64,000 nucleotides of DNA from Candidatus Latescibacterota bacterium (lineage in GTDB: Bacteria; Latescibacterota; UBA2968; UBA8231). Below are positions 42,958-59,661 of the stretch, in pieces. The stretch's first letter is position 1. Every line of letters begins with the position of its first letter. Both the position numbers and the translations under genes were made by a program. Location: contig OZ242318.1 of assembly GCA_965208105.1 (NCBI GenBank), positions 448,001 to 512,000 on the forward strand, given 5' to 3'. The notes under the pieces are model-generated. The model worked only from the letters and a program-made list of their open reading frames with translations. It had not been told where the DNA came from and made no database searches.

Positions 42958-45870
42958 ATGTCATTGCTATTCACACTTGCACTTCTAGCTCTGTACCTGT
43001 CCGCTGCTGCGGCCGAAGATGACCGACTTGGAGGAGGTCCGGGCGAGTCGGAGGTAATCTCCGCCCGCCCCTTTCTGCGCATGCCGCGGGAAGGTTATCG
43101 CAACTACGCCCTGCAAACCTATACTCCCTACCCGGACCATTCTGTCCCCTACAATCAAAGACCCCGGGCCTTTTTCGGACCCATGGGAGACTATCTCATC
43201 ACCGGCTATGGACTTTACTCCTGGAACGAGCGCCGCCTGCCCGGCCTGGAGTACGGAAGCGCCATCGCGAAAAACCTGGACGTATTCCGCCCGATTTTCG
43301 ACCACGTCATCGTCGGCCGCGACGGCTACGGCAGCTGGGGCTACAGTCTCATCGTCGGAGACGGCCTGATGGCCCGCTTCACTCCCCTTACCATGTCGAA
43401 GACGGACCTCAATGGAACGCGCCTCGACATCCACACTCCTCACCTGGAAATTACCCTGGCCGGCTCGCGCATCGAGCGCCCGGTACACTGGGTGGAGGGC
43501 ATGAATACCGCGCCCTGGATGATCGAGGGGACCCACTACGCCGACGCCACATCGCTGCTGTTGGGCGGACGCGCACAGACCAGGATCGGCGCCCTGCGCC
43601 TGGGATTGAACGGCGCCAACGTGCACATCTACGACAGCACCCGGCCCGGCAACTCCCTCAAGGGAATCATCCGGCCGGACCACCCCCGGATCTTCTGGCT
43701 GGGCCTTGAGATCAGCGACGACTCACCCGCCGACGGCGGCGGCGGCGCAGTGGTGCAGGAACTGCAGCTTGTCGTCAACGGAGAGGCCAGGCCCGACATC
43801 CGGCCCCGCGTGGTCAGCCACGGGGCAGGGGTGCGCTCCGCGGTGGGAACCTACTCCCAGGCCACAGGGGAGTTCCGCGGCACCGGCTACAAGCGCAGAG
43901 GCTATCCCTACTTTGCCGACTATCTCTACCGCTTCGAGCACGAGGACGGAATCGACGTGAGCGCAAACACCAATCTGGCCGCTCTCCTCGAAACCTTCGT
44001 CATGGAGCCTCCAGGGACGGTGCTGCGGGCAGACGGAGACGATCTGGTGGTCGCCATGTTCGACCTCTCGCGGGAACCGGCAATCGAGTCGGTTGTTGTG
44101 GACGCCCTGCTGGGCAACGACTACCGCGTCCGCGTATTCACCCTGATCGATGAAAACCCCAGGGCCAAGGGGCACGCTACCCGGTGGAGGCCCAGTTCCC
44201 CCATCATTCGCCTGCGCGCCCCTGGCAACGTGCAGGATCTGTCCAACCTGGGGCGCCGGCGCTTCAGGATCGGCGAGAACACCGGCCTCTTCACCTACAG
44301 CGCCGATTTGGCGCTCGACCTGCCCGGCCTCGAAATCGACGCCGAGTACGCCCGCTCCGCGCTCCTTTCGCGCTATCCGGGATTTATGGGGGAAACTCCG
44401 ATCTTCCGCCGGGCGCCCCACTTCGGGGAACACGGCTCCGCCTATTTCGTCACGGCCAGCCGCTGGTTTTCCCGCGGTCGACTGGGCGCCGAGTACTTTG
44501 CCATCAATCCCGAATTCCGCACCCGGATGATCAGCCGCCGCTGCTGCCGGCTCGGCGAACTCATCGGCATAGGCTACAGCAGTATGCTGGGCCTGAGCCT
44601 GGTTCAGGACAATGACGACGGCGACCGCTTCCCCGAGGACGTGGGAAGGGTTCTCGGCAGTCCAAGCGACGGAGGAGACGCGGACGGAGTCTTCCTCAGC
44701 CAGGACGGGAACAACGACGGCATCCCCGACACCAACCGGAACTTCAACAGTATCCCCGACTGGAACGAACCTTTTCTCATGTTCGAATCCGACCCCAACG
44801 AGTACGTCTACGGACTCGACCGCAACAACAACGACGAACCCGACCACCGCGAGGACGACGCGACCCCCGACTATCCCTATGACCTCGACCAGCGCGGCTT
44901 CCACCTCTTCGGGCAGGTACACCTGAGCACCCACTGGACCATGGCACTGGGCCGCTACCGCACCAGGCAGATCGAGGGTGCCGGCCGCAACCATGCGGAC
45001 TACGCACTCCTGAGCTACCGCCGCAAGGGCGCGGACCGGGTGCGCTTCCTGTTCTTCGAAAACAACCTGCGGCGCCTGAAGGACGGAATTCAGGACAACT
45101 TCGCCTCCTACGGCGACCGTCCGCGCCTGGACCTCTACTTCACCTTTCGCGGCTACCTGAGCGAAATCTTCCTGAATGTCCCGCCTGGACTGCAGCCGGC
45201 CATCCTCTATCGCACAGGGAGGCGCCACACCGATGTGCTACTCTACCAGGACAGCTACGTCAACGAGACCTACCTGGAGGGTCACCTCAATCCCTGGTCC
45301 AGCCTCAACCTGGTCCACAAACTGCGCCTGCGCCTCAACTGGCAGCAGGGGGGAGACCTGCCCGGAGGCGCCTCGCAGCGGGCTCGCCGCCTCGACTACT
45401 GGACCCTGGTCAGCCGCGCCGACTACACCTGGCAGTGGGGCCGCCTGCAGATCAAGCCCAGGATCAAGTTCATGCTCCTGCGCCTGGTCGACCAGGACGC
45501 CGACCGCCAGCCCGGAGGGCGCTATGCCCCGCGCGAGCTGATCGCCGAGCACCGCATCATTCCCATCCTCCTGGTCTCCTGTCCCCTCCTGCGCCGCACC
45601 ACGATGCAACTGGGGCTGCAGGGGCTGGGCCCGCTGCCCTACCGCCTCGAAGACCGCGTCCGCGAGCGCAACAGCCTGCGCCGGCGCATCGGCTTTCTCA
45701 CTCTGACCAACCGCTCTCTCTACTTCGGCTACGACCTCTACAACATCGTGGGCATGCAGCGCGACAAACTGAGCTACGACGACACTTTCAGGCAGAGCTC
45801 CAACCGCGACACCTGGTCTTTCTTCATCCGCACATTGGTAGGGTTTACCGAGTACGGGCGGGCAATCTAA
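42958..45870 (+). CDS. Large hypothetical exported protein, paralog 3
   Basis: Signal peptide MSLLFTLALLALYLSAAAA; collinear with paralog 2 over the full length. Confidence 0.88.
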   Translation: MSLLFTLALLALYLSAAAAEDDRLGGGPGESEVISARPFLRMPREGYRNYALQTYTPYPDHSVPYNQRPRAFFGPMGDYLITGYGLYSWNERRLPGLEYGSAIAKNLDVFRPIFDHVIVGRDGYGSWGYSLIVGDGLMARFTPLTMSKTDLNGTRLDIHTPHLEITLAGSRIERPVHWVEGMNTAPWMIEGTHYADATSLLLGGRAQTRIGALRLGLNGANVHIYDSTRPGNSLKGIIRPDHPRIFWLGLEISDDSPADGGGGAVVQELQLVVNGEARPDIRPRVVSHGAGVRSAVGTYSQATGEFRGTGYKRRGYPYFADYLYRFEHEDGIDVSANTNLAALLETFVMEPPGTVLRADGDDLVVAMFDLSREPAIESVVVDALLGNDYRVRVFTLIDENPRAKGHATRWRPSSPIIRLRAPGNVQDLSNLGRRRFRIGENTGLFTYSADLALDLPGLEIDAEYARSALLSRYPGFMGETPIFRRAPHFGEHGSAYFVTASRWFSRGRLGAEYFAINPEFRTRMISRRCCRLGELIGIGYSSMLGLSLVQDNDDGDRFPEDVGRVLGSPSDGGDADGVFLSQDGNNDGIPDTNRNFNSIPDWNEPFLMFESDPNEYVYGLDRNNNDEPDHREDDATPDYPYDLDQRGFHLFGQVHLSTHWTMALGRYRTRQIEGAGRNHADYALLSYRRKGADRVRFLFFENNLRRLKDGIQDNFASYGDRPRLDLYFTFRGYLSEIFLNVPPGLQPAILYRTGRRHTDVLLYQDSYVNETYLEGHLNPWSSLNLVHKLRLRLNWQQGGDLPGGASQRARRLDYWTLVSRADYTWQWGRLQIKPRIKFMLLRLVDQDADRQPGGRYAPRELIAEHRIIPILLVSCPLLRRTTMQLGLQGLGPLPYRLEDRVRERNSLRRRIGFLTLTNRSLYFGYDLYNIVGMQRDKLSYDDTFRQSSNRDTWSFFIRTLVGFTEYGRAI
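45249..45870 (+). repeat. 622-bp near-identical direct repeat, copy 2 (3' end of paralog 3)
   Basis: Matches 42241-42862. Confidence 0.95.
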
Positions 45871-45921: not shown

Positions 45922-48072
45922 CTACATCTGCAGCGGGATGTTGCGAATCATTCCGGTGAGGGAGTCCACCATGAGCCAGATGCCGTTGCACAGCACGTGG
46001 CCGACGATCAGCCCCAGGAAGAATGGCTGTGTGCGGCGGTAGGCCGCGGCGCCGCCGTAGCGCAGCACCACCTTCTTGATCAGACAGGCCGCCAGAATAC
46101 TGAACCACATGTAGTAGATGACCATTCCGACGGGAAATCCGAGAGGATGCAGGGGCCACCACAGAAAGCGCATCCGCGCCCACAGCATGATCAGCATGGC
46201 AGCGGCCCCTCCCAGGTAAAATCCCAGACCGGTCCAGTACACCCCCCGGGGCTCCAGGTTGCGCAGCGCCACGTTGTAGATATCCGCAGGGGCAACCTGG
46301 AAATAGGATCCCCGCAGGTTGATGCCGCCGTATTCGTGGGCCATGTGCAGGATCATCCAGAAAGCGCCCGCGACGCCGATGGCCAGGGCCAGGACCACCG
46401 CGCCAAGCAGGCGGCCCCTGCTGCGCCGGTCCACCTCCCCCACCAGCTTGAGGCCGGTGGCGAGGACGGTCATCAGGTTGATGGTACCGTTGAGGGACCA
46501 GGCATAGCCCATGGAGAGGCAGAATACCCCTGTGGGGCCTATCAACTGCGATCCCAGGATCCCGGTCACCAGCTCGGGCGCCCCCAATGGAGACGACATC
46601 CCCACCAGACCGGCCTCGGCCACGCAGCGGGTTATGCCGATGAAGACACACAGGACGACCGCTACGAAAACCGCCGCCACCCACAGCGGAGTTCCCATCA
46701 GCCAGAGCCACCCTGCCATGACCAGGGGTCCTCCCACCGCACCTGCCACGGCAGTGCGATAGGAGAGGATCTCGTCGCCGTCGTCGACATGGGGAGCCCG
46801 CCCGAGAGCCTTGCGCGCCACGTTCTTCAGGTGCTCGCGTCCCATCCACAGGCCCGCGGCGACCAGTGCCATGAATGCACCAGCTCCCTGGTAGCCCATG
46901 AGCGGCACCGTGCTGAACCCATGGGTCACCGTCTGACCCGAGCCCAGGCCCATGAACACCAGGGCCCATCCCTCCAGCTTGAAGAGCAGGTGGAACAGGC
47001 AAATCCCGGCGGCGATCTTGGTGTTGACGAAGTAGCAGAATCCGATCCAGATGAAGCTGATCTGCACGATGATCAGCTCGACGTCGAGGACCGGGAAGCT
47101 CCAGAACATCCGCGGATGCACAACGGCCGGGTCGTAACTGTGCCATGCCTTGAGACTTCCCACTACCAGGGGAAGGGCACAGCCCGCCCACATGGCGGGG
47201 CTCTTGAAAAAGCGATTCACCAGCATCTCCCCCTTCTCCCCGCTCACCAGGGCCAGGGGCACCTGCGCCACCGGATATGGAAGGCGCTCGCGCTCCGCCC
47301 ACTGGCGCCGCAGGATCACCGCCATGGAAATCAGTGTGGCGTAAAGGGCACCCAGGAAGATCCCCCACCAGAACAGAGGCTCCACCCAGGCCTCGTAGGC
47401 AACCGAATGCCCGGCGCCCACGCCTTCGTAAAAGGCCTGGTTCTGATTGCCGTCGTCTACCATTATGCGGCGCTCGGGCAGGAGGGGAAAGAGTCTTTCC
47501 GCCCACCTGTTCTCGATGGAGGCAAAGTAGAAGAGGGCGGTGATTCCAGGCAGGAGGATCTCGCTCAATCCAAGGGAGCACACCGCCGATACCACCAGCA
47601 GCATGACGTAGACCAGGATCAGCTCCGAGCGATTGAGCGTCAGACTGCGGCCGTGGACTGCCATGGCCCAGTTCAGCACCAGCAGGAGGACCAGAAAGGA
47701 GGAGTATATCAGGAGCGGAGAGTAAAAATCAAGGGAGTCCGGCGGCCACCAGGCGCCAAGGTAAAGTCCGACGGCCAGCAGGGCGGTGAGCAGCGCCCTG
47801 TCCGGGCGTCCCGCGCCCAGCTTGAACAGCAGGTTCAGCACCCCGACCAGCAGGACCAGGAGCAGAAAGGCCCCCGAGGTGGTGGCGTTCTGGGCCATGT
47901 AGGGACCCTTGATGAGGATATTGCCGTAAGGCGCGCCAATGGCCAGGAAAAAGCTGAGTATTCCCCCCAGCAGGAAGGACCGCGCCCTCACCCCCTGGCG
48001 GCGGTCCCCGGAGCGGCTCCGGTCCTCGAGATATCTCTTCAGCCCAGGAGGCAGTTCGCGCCTCAACAGCAC
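45922..48072 (-). CDS. Polytopic membrane protein, DUF6785/DUF6784-like
   Basis: 716 aa with many TMs; QWAERERLPYP, R.VAEAG, WWPLHPLGF and K.VVLRYGG..YRR..PFFLGLI.G motifs (recognised from memory). Confidence 0.75.
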   Translation of the reverse strand: MLLRRELPPGLKRYLEDRSRSGDRRQGVRARSFLLGGILSFFLAIGAPYGNILIKGPYMAQNATTSGAFLLLVLLVGVLNLLFKLGAGRPDRALLTALLAVGLYLGAWWPPDSLDFYSPLLIYSSFLVLLLVLNWAMAVHGRSLTLNRSELILVYVMLLVVSAVCSLGLSEILLPGITALFYFASIENRWAERLFPLLPERRIMVDDGNQNQAFYEGVGAGHSVAYEAWVEPLFWWGIFLGALYATLISMAVILRRQWAERERLPYPVAQVPLALVSGEKGEMLVNRFFKSPAMWAGCALPLVVGSLKAWHSYDPAVVHPRMFWSFPVLDVELIIVQISFIWIGFCYFVNTKIAAGICLFHLLFKLEGWALVFMGLGSGQTVTHGFSTVPLMGYQGAGAFMALVAAGLWMGREHLKNVARKALGRAPHVDDGDEILSYRTAVAGAVGGPLVMAGWLWLMGTPLWVAAVFVAVVLCVFIGITRCVAEAGLVGMSSPLGAPELVTGILGSQLIGPTGVFCLSMGYAWSLNGTINLMTVLATGLKLVGEVDRRSRGRLLGAVVLALAIGVAGAFWMILHMAHEYGGINLRGSYFQVAPADIYNVALRNLEPRGVYWTGLGFYLGGAAAMLIMLWARMRFLWWPLHPLGFPVGMVIYYMWFSILAACLIKKVVLRYGGAAAYRRTQPFFLGLIVGHVLCNGIWLMVDSLTGMIRNIPLQM

Positions 48073-48109: not shown

Positions 48110-50758
48110 TCAGTAATTCAGCGGAGAGACCGCCTTGCTGACCATCGCCAGGGCGGCGCACAGCATGCCCACCAGGGCCATTCCCACGCCGAAGCCCACC
48201 GCCAGCACCATGGCATAGCGCCGCCATTCCTGCTTGCCGTAGCGCTTCCAGAAGTAGAACCTCGCCAGCAGCGCCCCGAAGATCTGGGGCAGCAGGCTGT
48301 GCGGGATGCCGATGACACTCTGCACGTAGCCCCAGATCAGAAAGATGGGCAACCCCAGGAAGGAAAGGATGGAATAGGCCACCAGCCCGAAGCCGGCCCC
48401 GAATGCGATAATGGGCCATTTTTTGCCGTCCACGGGATGGCCCCAGTCCTCGTCCACCTCCCCGTCGCCATCGTCGTCGCGGCCGTTGACCACTTCTTCG
48501 TCCACCTCCCCGTCGCCGTCGTCGTCGCGGCGGTTGCCGCTGAAGCGCAGATCCTCCCACAGGGCCTCGAACAGCAGGGGACGGTGGGAGGAGCGCAGGA
48601 GAAAATCCCCGCCGAAGCCCTGGGCCCGGTCCAGCTCGAAGTAGAAGTCCAGGGAGTCCTCCGCAACATTCTGTGCCGCGGCCCTTAAATGGGGGTTGGG
48701 GCTGTCTACCAGGTGGCCGTCCGGAGGCCACAGCAGGCGCGGAGCGGGCAGCTCCGGATCGCCCCCGCCAGATTCGGGCTGAGCTTCGATGATTCCCTCG
48801 AGCCGGGGCGCGGGGGGCGGCGAACCCCGCCCCTGGAAGTCGGTGAAAAAGTAGCCCACCCTCGACCAGGGGCCGTAGCTCCTCTTCTCGGGATCCGGGA
48901 CGTGGGTCTCCTGGGTCCCCCGCGCCCGCCAGAACCACCAGGTGCGGTCGCGCAGGTTGCTGGGACTCCACACCGCCTGGCCGCGCCCCACCTTTGCGCC
49001 TTCCACCTCCTCCCCTGCGCGCCACATCTTGTTGTACATGGTGCTCGACAGGAAGAAGGCCTGATCAAATGCCCTGAGGGGCCACATCTTCTGGGCATAG
49101 GGATAGGACTCGGATGGTATGGGCGCCAGGCGCCAGAGGAAGGTCCAGTACATCAGGCTCACGGCAAAGACGATGGGAATCATGAACAACTCGGCCTTGA
49201 GCAGGCTGGTGAAGCGCATGCCGGTGAGCTCCACCACGCGAAAATCTTCTGCATGTCCCCCGTAGTTGCGCGTCGGAAAGGGCACGAACCAGATGTCCAC
49301 CCCCCTGTAACCGGTCAGAAAGATGACCGCCTCGTTGATGTAGGGGATGGAGGCCTCGCGGCCGATCAGACCGTCCAGGCGGGCGCTGACGAAGGAGATG
49401 ATGGGAGCGTAGACGAAGGCGATGAGGAGGAAGACCACCAGCAGTCCGGTGCTCACTAGGGTGGGGAACAGGGTTTTGGCCAGGACGATGGGATAGAGGG
49501 CGGCGGTGCAGAAAAGGGCGACGCAGACCCAGATATTGAAATCCCCCCTCCCCAGATGCGCAATGCAGTATCCCCTGACCTCGGCGGGGCGCCTGCAGCT
49601 TCCGTGGCGGCAGACGCCGGTGGTAGGGCTTCTTTCCGCCTGGTTCTGCTCCCTGATCTCCTGCTGCCTGCGGCGTCCCGTGGCGAAAAGGTTGTAGAAG
49701 CTGATGGTGGTCACGGCGAGGGTGATGCCGATGGAGAAGGCGCGCCAGAAATCGATTCCGGTGGCGATCTGGGTGCGAATGGTGTCCATGCCCACCTCCC
49801 ACCGCGGCAACCAGCCGTAGGCGTAGAGGATGGGACTTACCGCGGTGTGGACCACGACTCCGGCGAAAGAACCGACCACCGCCCAGAAGGGCATGAGCAG
49901 GCCGGCGAAGATGGGACCCAGGTGAAGGGTGATGCCCAGGGGAGCCGCCTGCAGCAGGTTGCCCAGGTAGGGGGTGAAATCGGCAAAGGGAATGGGAATC
50001 AGTTCCAGGCGCTTGCCGAAGGCGATCTCCGTGATGGTTGGCAGCCCCACGTAGAGCACCCCGAACACCGTGCCGATGGCGGCGCCAATGCTGAACACCG
50101 GCCACTTCCAGGTTTCTCTCTCGCTGCCGCTCTCCTCGGCCAGGGCCATGGCCCCCAGCGCCGACATGGGCGCGGTGGGAAAGGGCAGCTGCTCCCGGTC
50201 GGAGGTCAGCCGGAAGAGCAGATAACCGGAGGTGAACCAGGCGATGCGGCCCACGATGGTGCCCAGCACCAGGAGCAGGATGGGCACCGCCCAGTCGCGG
50301 TGCAGAAAGGTGCGCTCGGCAATGGCCTGGGAATCCGGGTCAGGAACCCACCACGAGGGCAGCAGGCGGGAAATGCCGAACTGCTCTGCCTCGGCCGATC
50401 CCACGAAGTACTGGCGCCAGAGCAAATCGAGAAAGGCGCCCTCCTCCCGCGCGACCAGAGCAGACGCCACGTACACCAGCAGGAAGATCTCCTGCCGCTT
50501 CAAAGAGGTGAATGACCGCTTGGCCACCTCGAGGAACAGAATGACGGTCACCCATTGCGCCGCCGAGCCGATCGAGCCGCCAGTCACCAGTCCCAGATAC
50601 ATCTCGCCCGGGGTCATGATCAGGGAGATGAAGACCACCCCGAGGATGGTGCGCAGGGTGAAACCGCTTTCAAAGCGGTCGGGCGCCTGCAGCAGATCCC
50701 TGTACTCTTCGACTTCCTCCCACTGCCTGTCCTTGCGCCTGAGCATCGCCGGATTCAC
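48110..50758 (-). CDS. OPT-superfamily-like transporter with inserted soluble domains
   Basis: 882 aa; GFTLRTILG, AQWVTVILF.E and REQLPFP motifs, many TMs; GTG start overlaps the upstream stop (GTGA). Confidence 0.75.
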   Translation of the reverse strand: MNPAMLRRKDRQWEEVEEYRDLLQAPDRFESGFTLRTILGVVFISLIMTPGEMYLGLVTGGSIGSAAQWVTVILFLEVAKRSFTSLKRQEIFLLVYVASALVAREEGAFLDLLWRQYFVGSAEAEQFGISRLLPSWWVPDPDSQAIAERTFLHRDWAVPILLLVLGTIVGRIAWFTSGYLLFRLTSDREQLPFPTAPMSALGAMALAEESGSERETWKWPVFSIGAAIGTVFGVLYVGLPTITEIAFGKRLELIPIPFADFTPYLGNLLQAAPLGITLHLGPIFAGLLMPFWAVVGSFAGVVVHTAVSPILYAYGWLPRWEVGMDTIRTQIATGIDFWRAFSIGITLAVTTISFYNLFATGRRRQQEIREQNQAERSPTTGVCRHGSCRRPAEVRGYCIAHLGRGDFNIWVCVALFCTAALYPIVLAKTLFPTLVSTGLLVVFLLIAFVYAPIISFVSARLDGLIGREASIPYINEAVIFLTGYRGVDIWFVPFPTRNYGGHAEDFRVVELTGMRFTSLLKAELFMIPIVFAVSLMYWTFLWRLAPIPSESYPYAQKMWPLRAFDQAFFLSSTMYNKMWRAGEEVEGAKVGRGQAVWSPSNLRDRTWWFWRARGTQETHVPDPEKRSYGPWSRVGYFFTDFQGRGSPPPAPRLEGIIEAQPESGGGDPELPAPRLLWPPDGHLVDSPNPHLRAAAQNVAEDSLDFYFELDRAQGFGGDFLLRSSHRPLLFEALWEDLRFSGNRRDDDGDGEVDEEVVNGRDDDGDGEVDEDWGHPVDGKKWPIIAFGAGFGLVAYSILSFLGLPIFLIWGYVQSVIGIPHSLLPQIFGALLARFYFWKRYGKQEWRRYAMVLAVGFGVGMALVGMLCAALAMVSKAVSPLNY
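48450..48531 (-). repeat. Two 34-bp copies (48-bp period) encoding tandem RDDDGDGEVDE Ca-binding-type loops
   Basis: tcgtccacctccccgtcgcc(a/g)tcgtcgtcgcggc at 48450 and 48498. Confidence 0.9.
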
Positions 50759-53700
50759 CCGCCTTCCATGGCTATGCCCTCACCCAGCATCTGACGGGCC
50801 CTTTCCATGTGCTGCTCCCGTTCCTCATCCTTCAAGGTGTGCCAGATGAGGAACTCCTTGCGCAATCCATGCACGAAGCGCTGGTTCGTCGAGCGCCAGA
50901 AGGTGTCCTGGCCGCTGACGCGCTGAATGAAGAACTCGGCCGCGTAGATATTCTCCACCTCGGTGGGCTCGAAAACGATCTGCAGGTACTGGCTCACGCC
51001 CATGTCGAAGGGGGCCAGCCAGATCAGCATCTGTACCGCGTACTCCTCTCCCCTGGCCCCGCTTTCGCGAACCAGCCGGATTTCCTCGGTGAAGAAGGTT
51101 CCCAGGGACTCCTCGCTGTAGGCCCTGAAGTAGTTGACCAGAAAGCCGCACAGTCCCTCCACTTCCGCCTTGCCCACCATGAAGGGAAAGGGGAACTCCC
51201 AGCGGTCTCCCTCGGGAGCCGGCAACTGCCAGCGCCGCACCACCTCGGGGACCGCCGCCTGCGCCGCCATGCGCGCCGGGTAAAGGGTGGAGAGCAACAC
51301 CACCGCCATCACCAGCAGCGCTGCCACCACCGCAGACAGGGAGGAATAGTTCAGATTGACCCCCTCCAGGAAATTTGCCCAGATCAGCGCCTTTCCCATG
51401 CTCTGGCCGAGGACATATCCGCCGGCGATGCCCAGGACCGCATAGACGCAGGCCTCCGCCACGAAGAGCATGGAGATGTGGGCGGGAGCCAGACCCACCG
51501 ATGAGTAGATGCCGATCTCGCGGGAGCGCTCGTGTACCGCCCCGACCATGGTGTTGAGCACGATGAGGGCGGCGATGATCACGGGAACGATCAACTGCCC
51601 CAGGCCCTCCACCACCGTCATTCCCACGGAAGTGTAGGAATAGACGTTGATCCCATCCTCCTCCTCCAGGCCTGCGAACAGGCTGGTGGCCTGGCGCAGC
51701 AGAAAATCCTCGATCAGATCCCTCGCTTCCACTTCGGGGTGGAAGCGGACGGCCACCGAGCGCAGGTCGCCCCCCATCTGGCGGGCCAACTCGTAGGGCA
51801 CGACAAGAACGGTCTCGGGACGCTGGTGCACGAAGGGCCGGATGCCGCGGGGGTCTTCCCCAACTGCCGCTGCTCCGGTCTGGTCCACCGAGAGGTGGAA
51901 ATCGGCCGGGGTCGCCATCCCACCATCGAGGTCGCGACTGAGCGCCAGGCGGTTTGAGTCCACGAGGCCGCGCAGGAGCAATTGGCGGCCGAAAATACTG
52001 ACCCGCGCCCGGCCTACATCCTCTTCCGCGATCCCCAGCAAGGCGGCCATTTCCACTGGAACCAGGCAGGTGGATTCACCCGCCTCTTCAAACCAGGTGC
52101 CGGCCCGGAGAACCGCGTCCAGGACGCCGATTTGTTCTTCCTGGGGCGCCAGCCCCAGCAGGGCTCCGGCGCGGACCGAGCGCTTTCCGGATGTGACCGT
52201 GATATAGCCCTTTTCCTCCCCGCCCTGGAGTATAAACCAGCTTCGCGGACTGACGATGCCGTGGGACTCGAAATGAGAGCGCACGTATTCGAGGGCGGCC
52301 AGCTCCAGGGGTTCCCATCCCCAGTTCCTGATCAGGGCACCGGAATAAGCCCCTCCCTTGCCCAGCGGAAACCCCATAAAGCGAATCTGATTCTTGAATG
52401 AAGAGAAGGATAGCACGGTGAAGGTAAGCAGAACGAGAGTCGTCAGGGTCAGCCCGGTGCGCAGCTTGCGCCTCCGCATGTTCGAAATGCCCAGCATGAA
52501 AGCGGCATAGGCGGCGCCGACGCGGCTGATGTCGGTCTCGTGTACCTGGGCCGCAATCGCCTGGTAGTCGCGCATGTGGCGGTTGAAGCGGCCGACCACG
52601 AGCAGCAGCACGAAGACCGCCATGGCCATTATGGCAAAGGCCAGGAGGAGCACCAGAGGATGGGCGATCTCGAAGGCCGGGTGCACCTGCGAGATCACCA
52701 CCCAGATAAAGAGGAGCAGGAGAGCGAAGCCGGCCAGTTGCCGACGGATGTCGGCGGCGGCGAGGAACAGGCGTTCGGCGAAGAAGGCGGCTGGAATAAC
52801 CAGGGCCAGAAAAAACACCATGCCCTTGATCACGTCGTTGAGGGTGACCAGCGCATCCGGGTAAACGCGGGACTCGGTTCCCAGGGCGGCGCGAACGCCG
52901 GCCACGTGGCGGTCCCACTGCCTCGCCCGGCCGGCCTCCTCCGCCTCTTCCATCAAGGAGCCCGCCATCGCGTGAAGTTGGGTAAGACGCTGGTTTTCGA
53001 TGGCGTGCCGGCGCATGGTCCGCAGGCGGGCTTCGGTGAGCTGCCACATATCGCGCAGGGCGAGCACGGTGGTGCGGGTCAGCTCTTCCTCGGCGAGGAG
53101 ATAGCCGATTCCGCGCGCTTCCTTCTCGCTTGCGGTTCCCTGGCTGTTGACCAGCAGCATGAGGCCACCGTTCACGATGATCTTGAGACGGTCGCCATAG
53201 GCCCTGCCCGGAGGACCGAATACCACCCCTACGAGGTCCCGGGGGGACGGACTCAAGGCATAGCCGCAACGGCGGGCGTCGCGTCCTCCGGCATCGAGGA
53301 TCTTCAGATTCTGCATGGGCAGGAGAAATCGCGGATCGAGGAGACTGAAGAGGGGCCGTTGAACAGCCTCGAAAAGAACCAGGGTTTTCTTGTTGGTGGT
53401 GAAGCGGATGCTGCTCTGCAAGGAACCGTTGTCGGCAGGCTCCCCGTGGTGGTCCTGCGCCCTTATGCTCAGATCGGGGGCGAGGACGATCGACCCGGTC
53501 TTCGGCTCGAGCCCGTAGGCGCTGACCATGGCCATGCCCTGGGGCAGACCTCTGATTTCGGCATTGCCGTCCGTGCCGCAGATGTGGTAGCGCCACCGGC
53601 GAACCCCTTGGCGAGTCCCTTCCAGCCCCAGGTCCTGGCGGGCCGTTCCCCGGCCCTGGTGGGGGTCCGCAGGCCTTATGGCTGCCAGCGCCCCCGCGAC

Positions 53701-55197
53701 GGCCCGGTCCGGCAACTGGCTCCTGGGGGGAAAGGTGCGCACTTCAAGGCGCAGATCCCGCAGGCGGTCCTTGAGTGCCTGGCCGAACTCGTCCATACCG
53801 GCGAAAAGTTCAGGGTCGTCGAGGGCGCGGTGCAGGATCCTCTGGAGCAGGGCGATCTGTCGCTCCAGGTTGCCGAGGTTCACCTTCCCGGGACGGTCCA
53901 GGGGAGTATCCAGGTTGAACCGTCCGTCGTGCACGGTGACGAAGGCCAGGGAGACGATCCCGGCCGCGTGGGCCATCTCGCTGTTGACCGGGGCGCCCTG
54001 GGGCACGAAAGAGGACCATCCCAACCCCTTGATCGGGCTGATGCCGTTGACGAGGACTTCATTGCCATGCCTGCCCAACAGCGGCGCCATTTGCCTGGCG
54101 TAGGCGGTAAACCTGCGGCCGAAGGGGGCATAGAAGCGCCGCAAATCGGCGTTGTGGGTACTGTTCCACAGGCCCAGAAGATCGCTTTGGCTGGAAAGAT
54201 CCAGGCTTATGAAGAGCTTCACCTGGAGGGGGTCCGCGACCCGTCCGACGTAATCCTCGTGGAGGCGGGCGTGGCGCTCGAGAAAATCCACCATCCCCTG
54301 CATGGCCTGAAAATGAGCCGAAGTGGCAGCCAGAACCACGGTGCGGGCCGGCGGATGCGCCTTCAGGTGGCGGGCAAGCTCCAGAAGGGCGGTTATGCTG
54401 CAGGCGGCCTCGGCACTGGGGGCCAGCGCCGGCACCACCGAAGTGCCGTCGTAATAGGCCTCTACCACGATAATTTCGCGATTCAGCTCCGGGTGCGCCC
54501 CCGCAATCCTGCCGACGATATTCCAGGCAGGCCTCTCCTCCCAGTCCATCCTTCCCCGCAGCAGCCCTTCAACCTCGCCGCCCTGCCGGAGACGCTGGAG
54601 CAGGCTCAGGCCCGCATTCCGCCCGATCCAGAACCGCGGAATATCCAGGGGCGCTTCAACAAATTTGTCGTTTGCCTGTCTCCAGGTGGAGCTCTCGGGC
54701 TCAATGAAGATTACCGCCCTTGCTCCCAGGGCCGCGGCGTGCAGCCATCGGTCCTCGCTGTTGAATTCGAGCAGGGCGATGCGCCCCTCCACCTGCCGGC
54801 CGTTGAACTCGGACCAGTCGCCGTGCCCGCCATAAATCATGGGCGCTCTCACCCCCTCCGCAGGCAGTGTAGAGGTGCGCACCAGGTTGGGCCACAAACT
54901 CCAGATCTCGAAGACCCTGCCTTCCACCGTCAGCAGGAAGCCCCGGTCCATGGGCACCACCACCCCGTACTCCTCCCGGCGCAAATCCTCCACTCCGATG
55001 GCACCCAGTTCGGCCTCTACATAATCCGCCGCCAGAGCACAGCCAGGATAGCCCACCACTCTCGAGCCCGGCGCACTGAAGCGCTCGATGACACCGCGCA
55101 GATGGTCCACGTCGGCACCGGCGCAGGCATGCGCAATCAGAAGCCCGGAAGCTACCCGGAGAAGAAAAAATGCTCGCAAGGGAAATTTTTTCGGCAT
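50755..55197 (-). CDS. Fusion protein: signal peptide, PA/M28-like peptidase fold, TM block, MacB/FtsX-like permease, C-terminal soluble domain
   Basis: SRVVGYPG, NIVGRIAG..IIVVEAYYD and PPARTVVLAA (M28 fold); NMRRRKLRTGLT and HERSREIGIYSSVG..LYPARMAA (FtsX). Confidence 0.8.
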   Translation of the reverse strand: MPKKFPLRAFFLLRVASGLLIAHACAGADVDHLRGVIERFSAPGSRVVGYPGCALAADYVEAELGAIGVEDLRREEYGVVVPMDRGFLLTVEGRVFEIWSLWPNLVRTSTLPAEGVRAPMIYGGHGDWSEFNGRQVEGRIALLEFNSEDRWLHAAALGARAVIFIEPESSTWRQANDKFVEAPLDIPRFWIGRNAGLSLLQRLRQGGEVEGLLRGRMDWEERPAWNIVGRIAGAHPELNREIIVVEAYYDGTSVVPALAPSAEAACSITALLELARHLKAHPPARTVVLAATSAHFQAMQGMVDFLERHARLHEDYVGRVADPLQVKLFISLDLSSQSDLLGLWNSTHNADLRRFYAPFGRRFTAYARQMAPLLGRHGNEVLVNGISPIKGLGWSSFVPQGAPVNSEMAHAAGIVSLAFVTVHDGRFNLDTPLDRPGKVNLGNLERQIALLQRILHRALDDPELFAGMDEFGQALKDRLRDLRLEVRTFPPRSQLPDRAVAGALAAIRPADPHQGRGTARQDLGLEGTRQGVRRWRYHICGTDGNAEIRGLPQGMAMVSAYGLEPKTGSIVLAPDLSIRAQDHHGEPADNGSLQSSIRFTTNKKTLVLFEAVQRPLFSLLDPRFLLPMQNLKILDAGGRDARRCGYALSPSPRDLVGVVFGPPGRAYGDRLKIIVNGGLMLLVNSQGTASEKEARGIGYLLAEEELTRTTVLALRDMWQLTEARLRTMRRHAIENQRLTQLHAMAGSLMEEAEEAGRARQWDRHVAGVRAALGTESRVYPDALVTLNDVIKGMVFFLALVIPAAFFAERLFLAAADIRRQLAGFALLLLFIWVVISQVHPAFEIAHPLVLLLAFAIMAMAVFVLLLVVGRFNRHMRDYQAIAAQVHETDISRVGAAYAAFMLGISNMRRRKLRTGLTLTTLVLLTFTVLSFSSFKNQIRFMGFPLGKGGAYSGALIRNWGWEPLELAALEYVRSHFESHGIVSPRSWFILQGGEEKGYITVTSGKRSVRAGALLGLAPQEEQIGVLDAVLRAGTWFEEAGESTCLVPVEMAALLGIAEEDVGRARVSIFGRQLLLRGLVDSNRLALSRDLDGGMATPADFHLSVDQTGAAAVGEDPRGIRPFVHQRPETVLVVPYELARQMGGDLRSVAVRFHPEVEARDLIEDFLLRQATSLFAGLEEEDGINVYSYTSVGMTVVEGLGQLIVPVIIAALIVLNTMVGAVHERSREIGIYSSVGLAPAHISMLFVAEACVYAVLGIAGGYVLGQSMGKALIWANFLEGVNLNYSSLSAVVAALLVMAVVLLSTLYPARMAAQAAVPEVVRRWQLPAPEGDRWEFPFPFMVGKAEVEGLCGFLVNYFRAYSEESLGTFFTEEIRLVRESGARGEEYAVQMLIWLAPFDMGVSQYLQIVFEPTEVENIYAAEFFIQRVSGQDTFWRSTNQRFVHGLRKEFLIWHTLKDEEREQHMERARQMLGEGIAMEGG

Positions 55198-56751: not shown

Positions 56752-57177
56752 TCACTCTCCTGATTTGCGCGCCTCCAACAGGCGGACCGCCACATAGGCC
56801 AGGAGCGCGAAAACGAAGAAGACGAGCAGCATCCATGCAATCCCCTGCAGGGTTTCGATGATGGTGCGGTAGACTTCGAGGACCCAGCGCTCGGTGGTCA
56901 GGGCCAGCGCGAACGCCTCTCCGGTCCCACCCTTCCGCAACCCGGGCTGGGCCAGGGAACGCGGCGTTATGTAGCGCTCCAGCTCCCAGACCCGCACTCC
57001 CTTGGAAATTCCCACCACATAGATGGCGAAGCGCATGTACCTCACCCAGGCGGAGCTGATCTCCTCGGCGATGATGCGCTGCACAATCCCGGCGATCGGC
57101 CCATTGAAGAGGTGGGCGACCAGAGCCGAAACCCCCAGGGCGATCAGGAACGTCACCAGCAGCAGTGTGATGAACAC
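56752..57177 (-). CDS. Small hypothetical membrane protein (about 3 TMs)
   Basis: GTG at 57177 after a strong RBS (AAGGAGG); hydrophobic helices. Confidence 0.75.
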   Translation of the reverse strand: MFITLLLVTFLIALGVSALVAHLFNGPIAGIVQRIIAEEISSAWVRYMRFAIYVVGISKGVRVWELERYITPRSLAQPGLRKGGTGEAFALALTTERWVLEVYRTIIETLQGIAWMLLVFFVFALLAYVAVRLLEARKSGE

Positions 57178-57297
57178 CTTCCTCCTCCTTTCACGAAGGG
57201 ACAACGATGCCGCAACCTGGACCAGGCCGAACACTGGCGGACCCAGGACGGATTTCAACGCGGAAGCGGCCTTCCACCTCTCTTCCCGATGCACCGT

Positions 57298-58341
57298 TCA
57301 ATGGACCGTGCGTTCCCACAGCACCACGCGCTCGGGGTCGACCAGGGGAAGGACGGTATCTCCCGGCCGCCAGGACGGCTCTCTGGCGGCAAGGACATGG
57401 ATCTGGCATCCCGCCCACTCTACGAGAAGAATCCTGTGGTGCCCCGCGTCTTCGATCACCCGCACCAGGCCAGGGTCCTCCCCGCCGGCGAGGGCGATGT
57501 CTTCGGGCCTTATTCCCAGAAGCATCTCGCCCTTCCTCCCCCCAGCGGGCATTACCCGCGTGCCCCCGGCGGCCACCCAGTAGCCCTCGAACTCCCGGAC
57601 TTCGAGAATATTCATGGGTGGACGGCCCAACTGCCTGGCCACCACGGGTGACAGGGGCCGGAGATAGATCTCTTTCGCTCCACCCGTCTGGAGCACCCGG
57701 CCGCCCTCCAGCACGGCAATGCGGTCGCCCATGGACATGGCCTCGGCCTGGTCGTGGGTTACGTAAATCATGGGAATCCCCAGCTCGCGCTGGAGCACGA
57801 CCAACTCCACCCGCAAAGCCTCGCGCAGTTTGGCATCCAGATTGGTGAGAGGCTCGTCCATGAGAAAGAGGCGCGGCCGCCTGACAACGGCGCGGCCAAT
57901 GGCGACGCGCTGCATCTCTCCGCCGGACAGTTGTTCGACCCTGCGCTCCAGGAGATCTCCGATCCGCAGCAGAGACCCCGCCCATTGGATCCGCTCCTCG
58001 ATCTCGGCCGCCTTCAATCGGCGGCCGGGAGCCCTCAAAGGGAACTCCATGTTGCGGCGCACGGTCCAATCCGGGTAGAGGGAAAAATTCTGAAAGACCA
58101 ATGCCACGTCGCGCCCGGGAGGCAGCCGGTGGGTTATGTCCTCTCCGCCCATTTCGATACGGCCGGCTTCGGGCATCTCCAGTCCGGCAATGGTCCGTAG
58201 AAGGGTCGTTTTTCCGGCTCCGGTGGGTCCCAAAACCACCAGGAGCTCGGAAGGGCCCAACTCCAGGCTGACGGAGCGCAGAGCCTCGACGCGGCCGAAG
58301 CGCTTGCAAACACCCAGAAGCCGGAGAAATCCGTTTTTCAC
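57298..58341 (-). CDS. Sugar ABC transporter ATPase (MalK-like, TOBE domain)
   Basis: GPTGAGKT, LSGGEMQR, LMDEP and YVTHDQ; true start is the GTG at 58341 overlapping the upstream stop. Confidence 0.93.
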   Translation of the reverse strand: MKNGFLRLLGVCKRFGRVEALRSVSLELGPSELLVVLGPTGAGKTTLLRTIAGLEMPEAGRIEMGGEDITHRLPPGRDVALVFQNFSLYPDWTVRRNMEFPLRAPGRRLKAAEIEERIQWAGSLLRIGDLLERRVEQLSGGEMQRVAIGRAVVRRPRLFLMDEPLTNLDAKLREALRVELVVLQRELGIPMIYVTHDQAEAMSMGDRIAVLEGGRVLQTGGAKEIYLRPLSPVVARQLGRPPMNILEVREFEGYWVAAGGTRVMPAGGRKGEMLLGIRPEDIALAGGEDPGLVRVIEDAGHHRILLVEWAGCQIHVLAAREPSWRPGDTVLPLVDPERVVLWERTVH

Positions 58342-59402
58342 AGAGCCTCGCCCGTATCCGGGTCGAAGCAGCGAATGTGTCGCAGGTCGAAGCCCAGGGA
58401 AACCTCCTCGCCGCGTCGATACGAGCCACCCCCACCCACCTGCATGGTCAGGCGGCCCGACCCCGTATCCAGGTAGACATTGCGGCAGAATCCCAGGTAC
58501 TCCTCCGTCAGCACCCTGGCTTCGAGGAGCCCCGGAAAAGCCGGGCGCACGAACTCCGGACGCACCCCCAGGACAGCCCTGCCCACGCGAAGGGGACGCG
58601 GCAAGGGAAGATCCCACCCTCCGGCTGACGGGGTGAAGCGGCAATCCTCCCCTTCCCCAGCCACCTCTCCCTCGATCAGGTTCATTGCCGGACTGCCGAC
58701 GAAATGGGCAACGAAGAGGCCGGCAGGCCGATCGTAGACTTCGGCGGGGGTACCGCTTTGTCTGATGCGCCCCTCGTCCATCACCACCACCTGGTCGGCG
58801 AGGGACATGGCTTCCTCCTGGTCGTGAGTGACGTAGATGGTGGTCACTCCCATTTCCAGTTGCCGGGAGCGGATCCACTCGCGCATCTCCAGGCGCAGGT
58901 CGGCGTCGAGCGTGCCCAGGGGCTCGTCCATCAGGTAGAGCCGCGGCCTGCGCACCATCGCCCTCGCCAGGGCTACCCGCTGCTGGTCCCCCCCGCTCAA
59001 CTGGGGCGGATACAGGTCGGCCAGTGCTTCGAGCCCGAGGCGCGCGAGGATCTCGGCGACGCGCTCGCGGCGCTGGCGGGGGACACCCTCCATGCTCTCC
59101 AGGGGGAAGGCGATATTGTCGCGCACCGTCAGGTGGGGATAGAGCGAGTAGAACTGAAAGACGAAACCCACATCCCGCGCCGCCGGGGACATGGCGCTGA
59201 CGTCGGCTCCGGCCACTTTGATCTGTCCCCCGGTGGGGACCTCGAGCCCGGCGATCATGCGCAGAGTGGTGGTCTTGCCGCACCCGGAGGGCCCGAGAAG
59301 TACCACGAACTCCCCTTCCTCGCAGCGCAAGTCGATGCCTTTGACCGCTGCGGTACCCTCCGCATAGATTTTGCTGAGGCGGTTCAGTTCCAGGAAGCTC
59401 AT
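58338..59402 (-). CDS. Sugar ABC transporter ATPase (MalK-like, TOBE domain)
   Basis: GPSGCGKT, LSGGDQQR, LMDEP, YVTHDQ and FVGSPAMN. Confidence 0.95.
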   Translation of the reverse strand: MSFLELNRLSKIYAEGTAAVKGIDLRCEEGEFVVLLGPSGCGKTTTLRMIAGLEVPTGGQIKVAGADVSAMSPAARDVGFVFQFYSLYPHLTVRDNIAFPLESMEGVPRQRRERVAEILARLGLEALADLYPPQLSGGDQQRVALARAMVRRPRLYLMDEPLGTLDADLRLEMREWIRSRQLEMGVTTIYVTHDQEEAMSLADQVVVMDEGRIRQSGTPAEVYDRPAGLFVAHFVGSPAMNLIEGEVAGEGEDCRFTPSAGGWDLPLPRPLRVGRAVLGVRPEFVRPAFPGLLEARVLTEEYLGFCRNVYLDTGSGRLTMQVGGGGSYRRGEEVSLGFDLRHIRCFDPDTGEAL

Positions 59403-59661
59403 GTGTGTTCGTAGATTTCCATCAGGGGACCGGTTGGAGCACCAACCGGATAGATAGTAACTTCCCGATGCGCGCTTGACGCCTGAGCAGGGGGAATTAC
59501 AGGTCAAAACTACGATTCAATCGCCGATCTGCAAAAGATCGAAGACCTGCCATCTGCCTTGACCGGAAAACCGGAAGGTTCTTTAAATGTCTGTACTGGA
59601 ATCCACCTCGTCCGCTACCCCGAAAGTTTTTGGTCCAGACCTCACCGAGTCGGAGGACATG

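Follow-up and report, generated by a model that had tools for sequence, protein, structure and literature searches.

A 64,000-nucleotide window of a Candidatus Latescibacterota genome (assembly GCA_965208105.1, contig OZ242318.1, positions 448,001 to 512,000 of the forward strand) contains the gene P0001, whose product joins, in this order, an M28 aminopeptidase-like ectodomain with a protease-associated (PA) insert, a middle ectodomain, three transmembrane (TM) helices, an FtsX/MacB module, and a cytoplasmic tail domain. Alignments indicate that the M28-like domain is unable to assemble the canonical co-catalytic di-zinc centre of its family, and the residues that have taken the place of the metal ligands are themselves strictly conserved. 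We therefore describe the old pocket as remodelled and conserved rather than lost. Because this pocket is conserved, is predicted to lie outside the membrane under a PA roof, and is associated with permeases of the OPT fold, we read the domain as a tethered, non-proteolytic ligand receptor that feeds those permeases, an interpretation to which we give an even chance of being correct. The evidence is presented below together with the alternatives that bear on it.

Fold of the ectodomain

The structure prediction and superposition that a first-pass annotation of this DNA had proposed as a check returned the M28 fold. Residues 25-500 were modelled with AlphaFold2 from 61 sequences, with a mean pLDDT of 90.9 and a pTM of 0.91. 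Foldseek ranked the Aneurinibacillus AM-1 aminopeptidase 2ek8 (E 7.5e-28), BSAP, PaAP, and 3iib highest (E 7.5e-28 to 6.7e-23), followed by the transferrin receptor TfR1 and GCPII. When aligned with VIA, the model gave Z scores of 30.5 to BSAP (6hc6), 29.2 to 2ek8, and 25.9 to PaAP (8acg); the score for the prototype Aeromonas aminopeptidase (AAP, 1amp) was 27.7, with a root-mean-square deviation (rmsd) of 2.6 A over 260 of 291 residues. Glutaminyl cyclases, TfR1 (25.0), and GCPII were aligned at Z about 25. The relationship is also detectable at the sequence level. A phmmer search of the first 500 residues against the PDB sequences found the PA-containing 2ek8 as its sole match (E 2.8e-5), and a profile of the family matched 2ek8 (6.9e-13), BSAP 6hc6 (1.7e-10), the AAP variant 2anp (0.0026), nicalin (0.0064), and TfR1 (0.0078). 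P0001 itself had no match to the Pfam model Peptidase_M28 (PF04389) even at E<=1, and a paralogue in the same genome with like substitutions passed the PF04389 cut-off with 38.2 bits over profile positions 1-78 only.

According to the model, residues 28-480 adopt the M28 aminopeptidase fold with a PA insert. The two-lobed fold and the place of the insert are those of the PA-domain aminopeptidases BSAP (YwaD of Bacillus subtilis), 2ek8, and Pseudomonas PaAP; unlike them, the domain of P0001 is not secreted but tethered to a 10-helix membrane protein. Two basic residues of the insert, Lys178 (window 54664-54666) and Arg188 (54634-54636), are each present in 144 of 145 distant relatives and are thus conserved like the pocket residues, which makes them candidates for binding a carboxylate of the cargo.

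Placement of the former metal site

The metal-site positions were mapped by MAFFT alignment with L010 and L011, two canonical M28 proteins encoded in this genome, and by hidden Markov model (HMM) profiles against BSAP 6hc6 and against 2anp. All three alignments concur on the first four positions, and the printed numbering of 2anp reproduces His97, Asp99, residue 151, and Glu152. As listed in Table 1 of PMC7522609, 1amp holds Zn1 with Asp117, Glu152, and His256 (sites 2, 3, and 5) and Zn2 with His97, Asp117, and Asp179 (sites 1, 2, and 4), and the single-zinc M28-type proteins covered there hold their zinc via sites 2, 3, and 5. P0001 keeps the equivalents of Asp99 and Asp179, as do AAP and the PA-domain aminopeptidases. 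Of the six catalytic positions, four differ from those of M28 aminopeptidases (Tyr for His, His for Glu, Phe for Glu, and Ser for His), and a fifth shows the conservative exchange of Asp for Glu. The residues concerned are Tyr248, His295, Phe296, Ser406, and Glu263, respectively (Table 1).

The spacing of the motifs agrees with this map. Counted from the S/G of the 'SG' motif, Glu263 occupies position -4, which is also where AAP has Asp117, and the 32 residues from Glu263 to His295 equal the distance between the bridging Asp and the Glu in canonical L010. The His295-Phe296 pair aligned without a gap to the 'GAEE' of BSAP and the 'AAHE' of 2anp; an early HMMER alignment to 2ek8, which opened a 6-residue gap before Glu-Glu, was set aside in favour of this gapless placement by MAFFT, 6hc6, and 2anp. 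The assignments of Asp333 and Ser406 rest on MAFFT and on motif spacing, with Ser406 located seven residues before the invariant Gly413, as is the His in L011 and 2ek8. With Glu152 replaced by Phe296 and His256 by Ser406, the Zn1 half-site, which is the one used by known single-zinc M28 proteins, is therefore gone. On this map the domain is unable to form the canonical co-catalytic di-zinc centre; what was the Zn2 half-site now reads Tyr/Glu/Asp, and the general base is replaced by His.

The first-pass annotation had placed degenerate M28 metal motifs within 54190..54470. All of them are present in the minus-strand open reading frame (ORF), namely EAYYD at residues 246-250 (54448-54462), PSAEAACS at 260-267 (54397-54420), TSAHFQAMQG at 292-301 (54295-54324), and SLDLS at 331-335 (54193-54207), and the three alignments, the spacing, and the fold identify them as the metal motifs of M28; the site-5 Ser406 (53980-53982) lies outside that interval. 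The conclusion drawn there, that the zinc ligands were lost, holds for the canonical di-zinc centre but misses the rebuilding of the site with strictly conserved replacements. The statement that only SLDL was retained went too far, since the HxD motif retains its Asp (Asp250) and the bridging Asp has a conservative substitute in Glu263.

Conservation of the remodelled pocket

Two sets of relatives were examined. In the close set (n = 121; the 120 listed proteins, query included, and the in-genome paralogue), Tyr248, Asp250, His295, and Asp333 were each present in 121/121 and Glu263 in 119/121. Phe296 was found in 113/121 (Tyr in 5, His in 3), and position 406 was always small (65 Ser, 42 Gly, 12 Ala, and 2 Thr). 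The wide set was obtained by adding the 147 best new representatives from the exhaustive search reported below, to give 268 rows, and dropping 16 with gaps in the first six columns, to leave 252. Here Asp250 was present in 252/252, His295 in 250/252, and Asp333 in 245/252. Tyr248 was retained in 222/252 (His in 14, Phe in 8, other residues in 8), Glu263 in 218/252 (Asp in 14, others in 20), and Phe296 in 184/252 (His in 21, Tyr in 20); position 406 was Ser, Gly, or Ala in 218/252 and His in 5. When the 445 scored columns were ranked by conservation among the 147 distant representatives, Asp250 came 4th, His295 13th, and Asp333 26th, with Tyr248 and Glu263 at ranks 68 and 77. The canonical set of His/Asp/Glu-Glu/Asp/His occurred in none of the 252 relatives and in none of the four most distant fused paralogues that were fetched. 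Those four paralogues come from the same phylum and are 1900-1984 aa long; site 1 is Pro or Gly in them, Asp250 and Glu263 are unchanged, and the two that align at the place of His295 have Gln there.

Two further patterns concern the chemistry of the pocket. Tyr occupies position 296 in 12 of the 30 relatives without Tyr248 and in 8 of the 222 with it (Fisher p 6e-8, a value that is overstated since the sequences are related), and this exchange suggests that a hydroxyl is required. In addition, the family profile rates 2anp, the E151H variant of AAP, above the wild-type 1amp (E 0.0026 versus 0.076).

These counts indicate that the old pocket has been rebuilt and is held under strong constraint, not decaying. 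They also make it very improbable that the domain is a structural spacer or lid that itself binds no ligand, since such a role would not require former active-site residues to rank 4, 13, and 26 of 445.

Topology and the FtsX/MacB module

The M28 domain is predicted to lie outside the cytoplasmic membrane, and the count of hydrophobic helices is self-consistent with this placement. The protein begins with a candidate signal peptide or anchor at residues 9-27, where the Kyte-Doolittle average over 19 residues peaks at 1.67 and which follows three Lys/Arg within residues 1-8. The middle ectodomain (residues 481-788) had no Pfam match and no match among the PDB sequences, and an Atlas feature search of residues 480-788 was uninformative. 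Behind the three TM helices and a basic loop, hydropathy places the FtsX module, with TM1 at residues 916-934, a 268-residue extracytoplasmic domain (935-1202), and TM2-4 at 1203-1221, 1236-1259, and 1287-1305. Pfam recognises the FtsX domain PF02687 at residues 1206-1313 (50.9 bits against a cut-off of 25.5, 2e-13), and the family profile matches YtrF, MacB, LolC, and LolF over TM2-4 with E from 9e-9 to 1.5e-4. MacB_PCD scored 28.5 bits in the outer loop of the in-genome paralogue and gave no match in P0001 itself. An ERxREIG loop after TM2 is near-invariant in the fusion family and is aligned by the profiles to the corresponding stretch of MacB and YtrF, which we take to be the ATPase-coupling helix. 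The cytoplasmic tail (residues 1306-1480) is conserved, with many near-invariant columns, and has no Pfam match. Of the first-pass description of a receptor-type ectodomain fused to a permease, the ectodomain, as a predicted extracytoplasmic part, and the fusion to PF02687 thus stand; the word receptor goes beyond them and is inferred.

Association with DUF6785/DUF6784 and W882 proteins

P0001 is followed on the same strand by the genes for two membrane proteins, designated W882 and W716 after their lengths, of which W716 carries DUF6785 and DUF6784. We examined 60 related loci from Latescibacterota and from metagenome-assembled genomes labelled 'Gemmatimonadota'. In 52 of them, an immediate neighbour of the fusion gene was a DUF6785/6784 gene of like orientation, and in 19 of the 60 the FtsX-M28 fusion and DUF6785/6784 were combined in a single ORF of 2090-2148 aa. 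A W882 homologue was located downstream in 33/60. At least one of these partners was present in 58/60; the two exceptions are fragments of contigs (5.2 and 3.1 kb).

No ABC ATPase was detected by tblastn (LolD-like and MalK-like queries, E<=1e-3) within +-10 kb in 60 of 61 loci, these being the 60 and the locus of the in-genome paralogue. The single positive locus, L015, is the nearest relative, and its matches are a syntenic MalK-type pair beyond a fucosidase gene. Pfam showed no nucleotide-binding domain within P0001, and of the 69 ABC_tran matches in the genome none adjoins either copy of the fusion gene. The second copy (Table 1) has no DUF6785 gene; its M28 domain reads ESYYD, GAEQASG, and SAHH at the metal motifs and has an extra insert of ~100 residues before the Asp179 equivalent.

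The family is large. Among 8000 scored candidates, 517 homologues of 814-2590 aa were found at E<=1e-3, including forms fused to DUF6785/6784, and an exhaustive search of 1.84 billion cluster representatives yielded 1685 relatives at E<=1e-3, of which 640 also passed E<=1e-30. Within the phylum, a search at E<=1e-20 detected the N-terminal domain in 48 of the 61 genomes sampled and in 12 of 13 families, mostly with 2-4 matches per genome; canonical OPT genes, which are separate, occurred in 18 of these 61. The remaining family (f9) showed neither the fusion family at E<=1e-20 nor canonical OPT in its 13 sampled genomes.

The predicted OPT fold of W716 and the probable kinship of W882

An AlphaFold2 model of W716 (pLDDT 86.3, pTM 0.89) was compared with solved structures. 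Foldseek matched only barley Yellow Stripe 1 (7wsr at E 8.6e-8, and a second entry at 2.0e-7) with TM-scores of 0.56-0.67, all others having about 0.1. VIA superposed the model on 7wsr with Z 23.1 and an rmsd of 3.8 A over 554 of 600 residues, and the next structure had Z 5.1. W716 thus has, in its predicted structure, the OPT/Yellow-Stripe fold, at only 11-13% identity to HvYS1 (7wsr/7wst). An Atlas feature search of W716 had given sub-threshold 'peptide transporter/OPT' leads (0.77-0.79), which the fold search later bore out. W882 had no Pfam match over the cut-off. When the whole genome was searched with the OPT HMM, two matches alone appeared, both below the cut-off; one lies at the C-terminus of W882 (E 8.1e-4) and the other at that of its paralogue (3.0e-3). 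One W882 homologue is named 'OPT family protein' by JGI. W882 is probably a distant member of the OPT superfamily.

The identity of the matched structures raises a different possibility for the cargo. In this version the domain would be a receptor for a metal chelate or ferric ion, with its Tyr/Glu/His/Asp cluster delivering the metal to Yellow-Stripe-like permeases. Barley Yellow Stripe 1, the only solved structure matching W716, is available in one entry with Fe(III)-DMA; ferric-binding proteins use ligands of the Tyr, His, Asp, and Glu types; and the transferrin receptor shares the M28 fold. The fold match is uninformative on the substrate, however, because the OPT family also carries oligopeptides. 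PDZ domains, which bind peptide ends, occur in 49 of the 120 listed W882 homologues and point to such ends, genes for iron regulation or siderophores were not observed beside the operon, and the cluster is less well conserved at Tyr248 and Glu263 than at its other positions. We consider a metal-delivering receptor improbable.

Local features of W882 were also recorded. Two acidic motifs of the DDDGDG type at residues ~745-775 (window 48434-48526) flank the point at which the PDZ domain is inserted in homologues. The insert of ~185 residues is found in homologues of ~1063-1101 aa, for example between two DDDGDG motifs in P0405, and is absent from W882 here. A loop at residues 383-401 (window 49556-49612) is rich in Cys and His and resembles Zf_WRKY19 weakly (E 0.21; 0.0036 in homologue P0484); this stretch is conserved in P0405.

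A proposed tethered receptor and its alternatives

Under the favoured reading, a former M28 aminopeptidase would have been converted into a ligand-binding module outside the cytoplasmic membrane. The polar cluster of Asp250, His295, and Asp333, usually with Tyr248 and Glu263, would hold the cargo beneath the roof formed by the PA insert. The cargo would most likely be the free amino end of an oligopeptide and, less likely, a metal chelate, and it would be handed on to the OPT-fold permeases encoded in the operon (W716 and, probably, W882). A predicted complex of W716 with the tail domain (residues 1306-1480) scored 0.27, with a mark of 0.32, a result that bears neither way on binding. Because OPT transporters are proton-driven, the role of the FtsX/MacB module would be that of a tether or scaffold; alternatively, it could relay conformational changes if an ATPase from another locus docks on the conserved ERxREIG loop. 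We know of no OPT transporter that works with a tethered receptor.

Several observations weigh against this interpretation. The first group concerns the permeases, for which sequence comparison by itself did not establish the OPT link. W716 had no PF03169 match at E<=10, and the OPT HMM matches of W882, being below the cut-off, make for a weak link. When our alignments of W882, of DUF6785, and of 12 true OPT proteins were compared by hhalign, the probabilities were 2.3%, 0.2%, and 2.9% (E 0.021, 0.3, and 0.015), including 0.2% for DUF6785 against the 12 true OPT proteins and 2.3% for W882, from alignments that were shallow (Neff 2-2.8). BLASTP of W882 against W716 gave E 0.086, and searches of the PDB sequences with W716 and W882 returned nothing useful.

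The pocket itself furnishes the second group. An invariant His at the place of the general base, next to Asp, Glu, and Tyr, would also fit a changed enzyme, and the AAP variant with the same substitution (E151H), which the family profile prefers, is termed 'functional' in the title of its PDB entry and in the title of Bzymek et al. 2005 (cited in PMC3426542). Moreover, 14/252 relatives combine His at site 1 with Glu/Asp263 and Asp333 (e.g. HDDHWDS), so that a complete half-site of the Zn2 type, His/Asp(Glu)/Asp, exists in part of the fusion family. The domain might then still be an enzyme that trims or modifies peptides or another envelope substrate before transport, either with one metal on Tyr248, Glu263, and Asp333 and His295 as general base or by a metal-free His/Asp mechanism. 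The residues that replace the ligands are invariant instead of drifting, all are potential metal ligands or acid-base groups, Tyr/Glu/Asp with His295 could in principle hold one metal, and the apparent need for a hydroxyl at position 248 or 296 is in keeping with catalysis. Opposed to this, sites 2, 3, and 5, the ones used by the single-zinc M28 proteins covered in PMC7522609, are Glu, Phe, and Ser here. Position 248 is Phe in 8/252, position 263 is neither Glu nor Asp in 20/252, and the most distant fused paralogues have lost both the site-1 residue and, where aligned, His295. To our knowledge, no M28 enzyme works from the Zn2 half alone. We regard a retained enzymatic activity as unlikely, yet as the main alternative.

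A further counterweight is the near-invariant ERxREIG loop, which hints at an ATPase partner and fits export or mechanotransmission better than proton-driven uptake. The corresponding alternative is a system like FtsEX or MacB, in which the FtsX module would be powered by an ATPase whose gene lies elsewhere; the inactive peptidase domain would bring in or control a partner in the periplasm, or export a substrate, and the OPT-fold proteins would be accessory. The alignment of the loop with MacB and YtrF and the 69 ABC ATPase matches elsewhere in the genome are in its favour, as is the control of hydrolases by the outer domains of FtsX proteins described in PMC7668044 and PMC10694151. Such a system is nevertheless quite improbable given that the ATPase gene is missing from the surroundings of all loci but L015, with its MalK pair past the fucosidase, that the protein is fused to an OPT-fold protein in 19/60 loci, and that most genomes of the phylum have 2-4 matches, unlike single-copy division genes.

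Returning to the tethered receptor, we note a more specific form of it that we hold to be doubtful, namely a new class of receptor-dependent secondary transporter in which a MacB/FtsX tether or relay without an ATPase carries a pocket that clamps the free amino end of a peptide, possibly via one hard metal ion, and loads OPT-fold permeases. If true, this would be a third solution beside the ABC binding proteins and the TRAP/TTT systems, and it would provide a first function for DUF6785/DUF6784.

Comparison with known systems

Inactive M28 receptors are already known in eukaryotes, and the domain studied here would be a bacterial variant in an undescribed membrane module. TfR1, nicalin/nicastrin, and GPAA1 likewise carry an M28 ectodomain (with a PA or apical domain in some) on a membrane protein and have altered metal sites; nicalin, so named by the depositors of the matched structure, is a nicastrin-like inactive M28 protein. 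The likeness to nicastrin and the transferrin receptor invoked in the first-pass annotation is borne out structurally for TfR1, together with GCPII, and on the nicastrin side extends to the weak profile match of nicalin. These proteins are eukaryotic, and homology to P0001 is shown only at the level of the shared family. As points of difference, no helical dimerisation domain was identified in P0001, and its changed residues are strictly conserved in the old pocket. Nicalin retains AHYD and GADSNGSG in the profile alignment, whereas P0001 does not, and the partners of P0001 are transporters rather than a protease or a translocon. In GPAA1, a subunit of the GPI transamidase membrane complex, Pro occupies site 1 and Tyr site 5, according to PMC7522609. 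Glutaminyl cyclases, for which the same source gives Zn at sites 2, 3, and 5, differ from P0001, whose sites 3 and 5 are Phe296 and Ser406.

With the type VII ABC permeases (MacB/FtsX/LolCE/YtrF) the protein shares PF02687, the profile matches over TM2-4, a large ectodomain between TM1 and TM2, and ERxREIG. It departs from them in having no ATPase gene in cis, in being linked or fused to OPT-fold proteins, and in its three extra TM helices, 760-aa N-terminal ectodomain, and 175-aa cytoplasmic tail domain. An FtsX/MacB module without an adjacent ATPase gene and joined to OPT-fold permeases does not fit the view of type VII ABC proteins as ATP-driven mechanotransmitters. A bacterial counterpart with a rebuilt pocket would show the stepwise conversion of a di-zinc exopeptidase. 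The family is near-universal in one phylum, and functions for two DUF families and a core envelope system of the Latescibacterota, which are thought to live on polymers and peptides, are at stake. A literature search, with many PMC and most subscription papers outside its scope, found no publication on the fusion family or on DUF6785/DUF6784/PF20580/PF20581.

Feature coordinates and neighbouring genes

The coordinates are collected in Table 1.

Table 1 Features of the fusion gene, its operon, and its second copy (window coordinates unless stated)
Feature	Position	Strand	Basis or remark
Fusion gene P0001	50755..55197	-	ORF and translation; 1480 aa
N-terminal hydrophobic segment, residues 9-27	55117..55173	-	Candidate signal peptide or anchor
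M28 aminopeptidase-like domain with PA insert, residues 28-480	53758..55116	-	AlphaFold2, Foldseek, VIA; predicted extracytoplasmic
PA insert, residues 129-199	54601..54813	-	PF02225, 21.3 bits, cut-off 23.9, 3e-4
Tyr248-Tyr249-Asp250	54448..54456	-	Tyr248 in place of site-1 His97 (Zn2); Asp250 is second-shell Asp99, kept
Glu263	54409..54411	-	At place of bridging Asp117, site 2; aligned to Asp in L010, L011, and BSAP
His295-Phe296	54310..54315	-	At general base Glu151 and site-3 ligand Glu152 (Zn1)
Asp333	54199..54201	-	Kept site-4 ligand Asp179 (Zn2); MAFFT and motif spacing
Ser406	53980..53982	-	At site-5 ligand His256 (Zn1); aligned to His of L011 'SADH'
Second extracytoplasmic region, residues 481-788	52834..53757	-	Hydropathy topology
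Three predicted TM helices, residues 789-812, 821-839, 845-867	52597..52833	-	Hydropathy
Basic loop, residues 868-915			Cytoplasmic side; hydropathy
FtsX/MacB-type module	51283..52452	-	PF02687 and profile matches
Cytoplasmic C-terminal domain, residues 1306-1480	50758..51282	-	Topology
W882, 882-aa polytopic membrane protein, downstream	48110..50758	-	Start overlaps stop of fusion gene
W716, 716 aa, third gene, DUF6785 and DUF6784	45922..48072	-	Pfam 1.1e-96 and 8.6e-26
Second module copy	G000:C1:4685676-4692927 (L009 5677-12928)	-	1609-aa fusion, 45% identity, then W882 paralogue, 43%

Upstream of the fusion gene lies a divergent gene for an alpha-L-fucosidase. Beyond it, at window 56752-59507 on the minus strand, are two tandem MalK-type ATPase genes (ABC_tran and TOBE), the nearest ABC ATPase genes to P0001, and the gene for a 180-aa membrane protein, with no permease gene seen beside them; L015, the nearest relative, is the only other locus to share this arrangement with the fucosidase gene. 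This pair was considered as a motor for the FtsX module and rejected, given the divergent fucosidase gene in between and the conservation in L015 only. At the other end of the operon, two adjacent plus-strand ORFs of 965 and 970 aa (window 39965-42862 and 42958-45870) converge with it. Both have a sub-threshold match to the S-layer SlpA beta-barrel at an equal position (E 2.8e-4 and 3.5e-3), and they probably encode paralogous envelope proteins.

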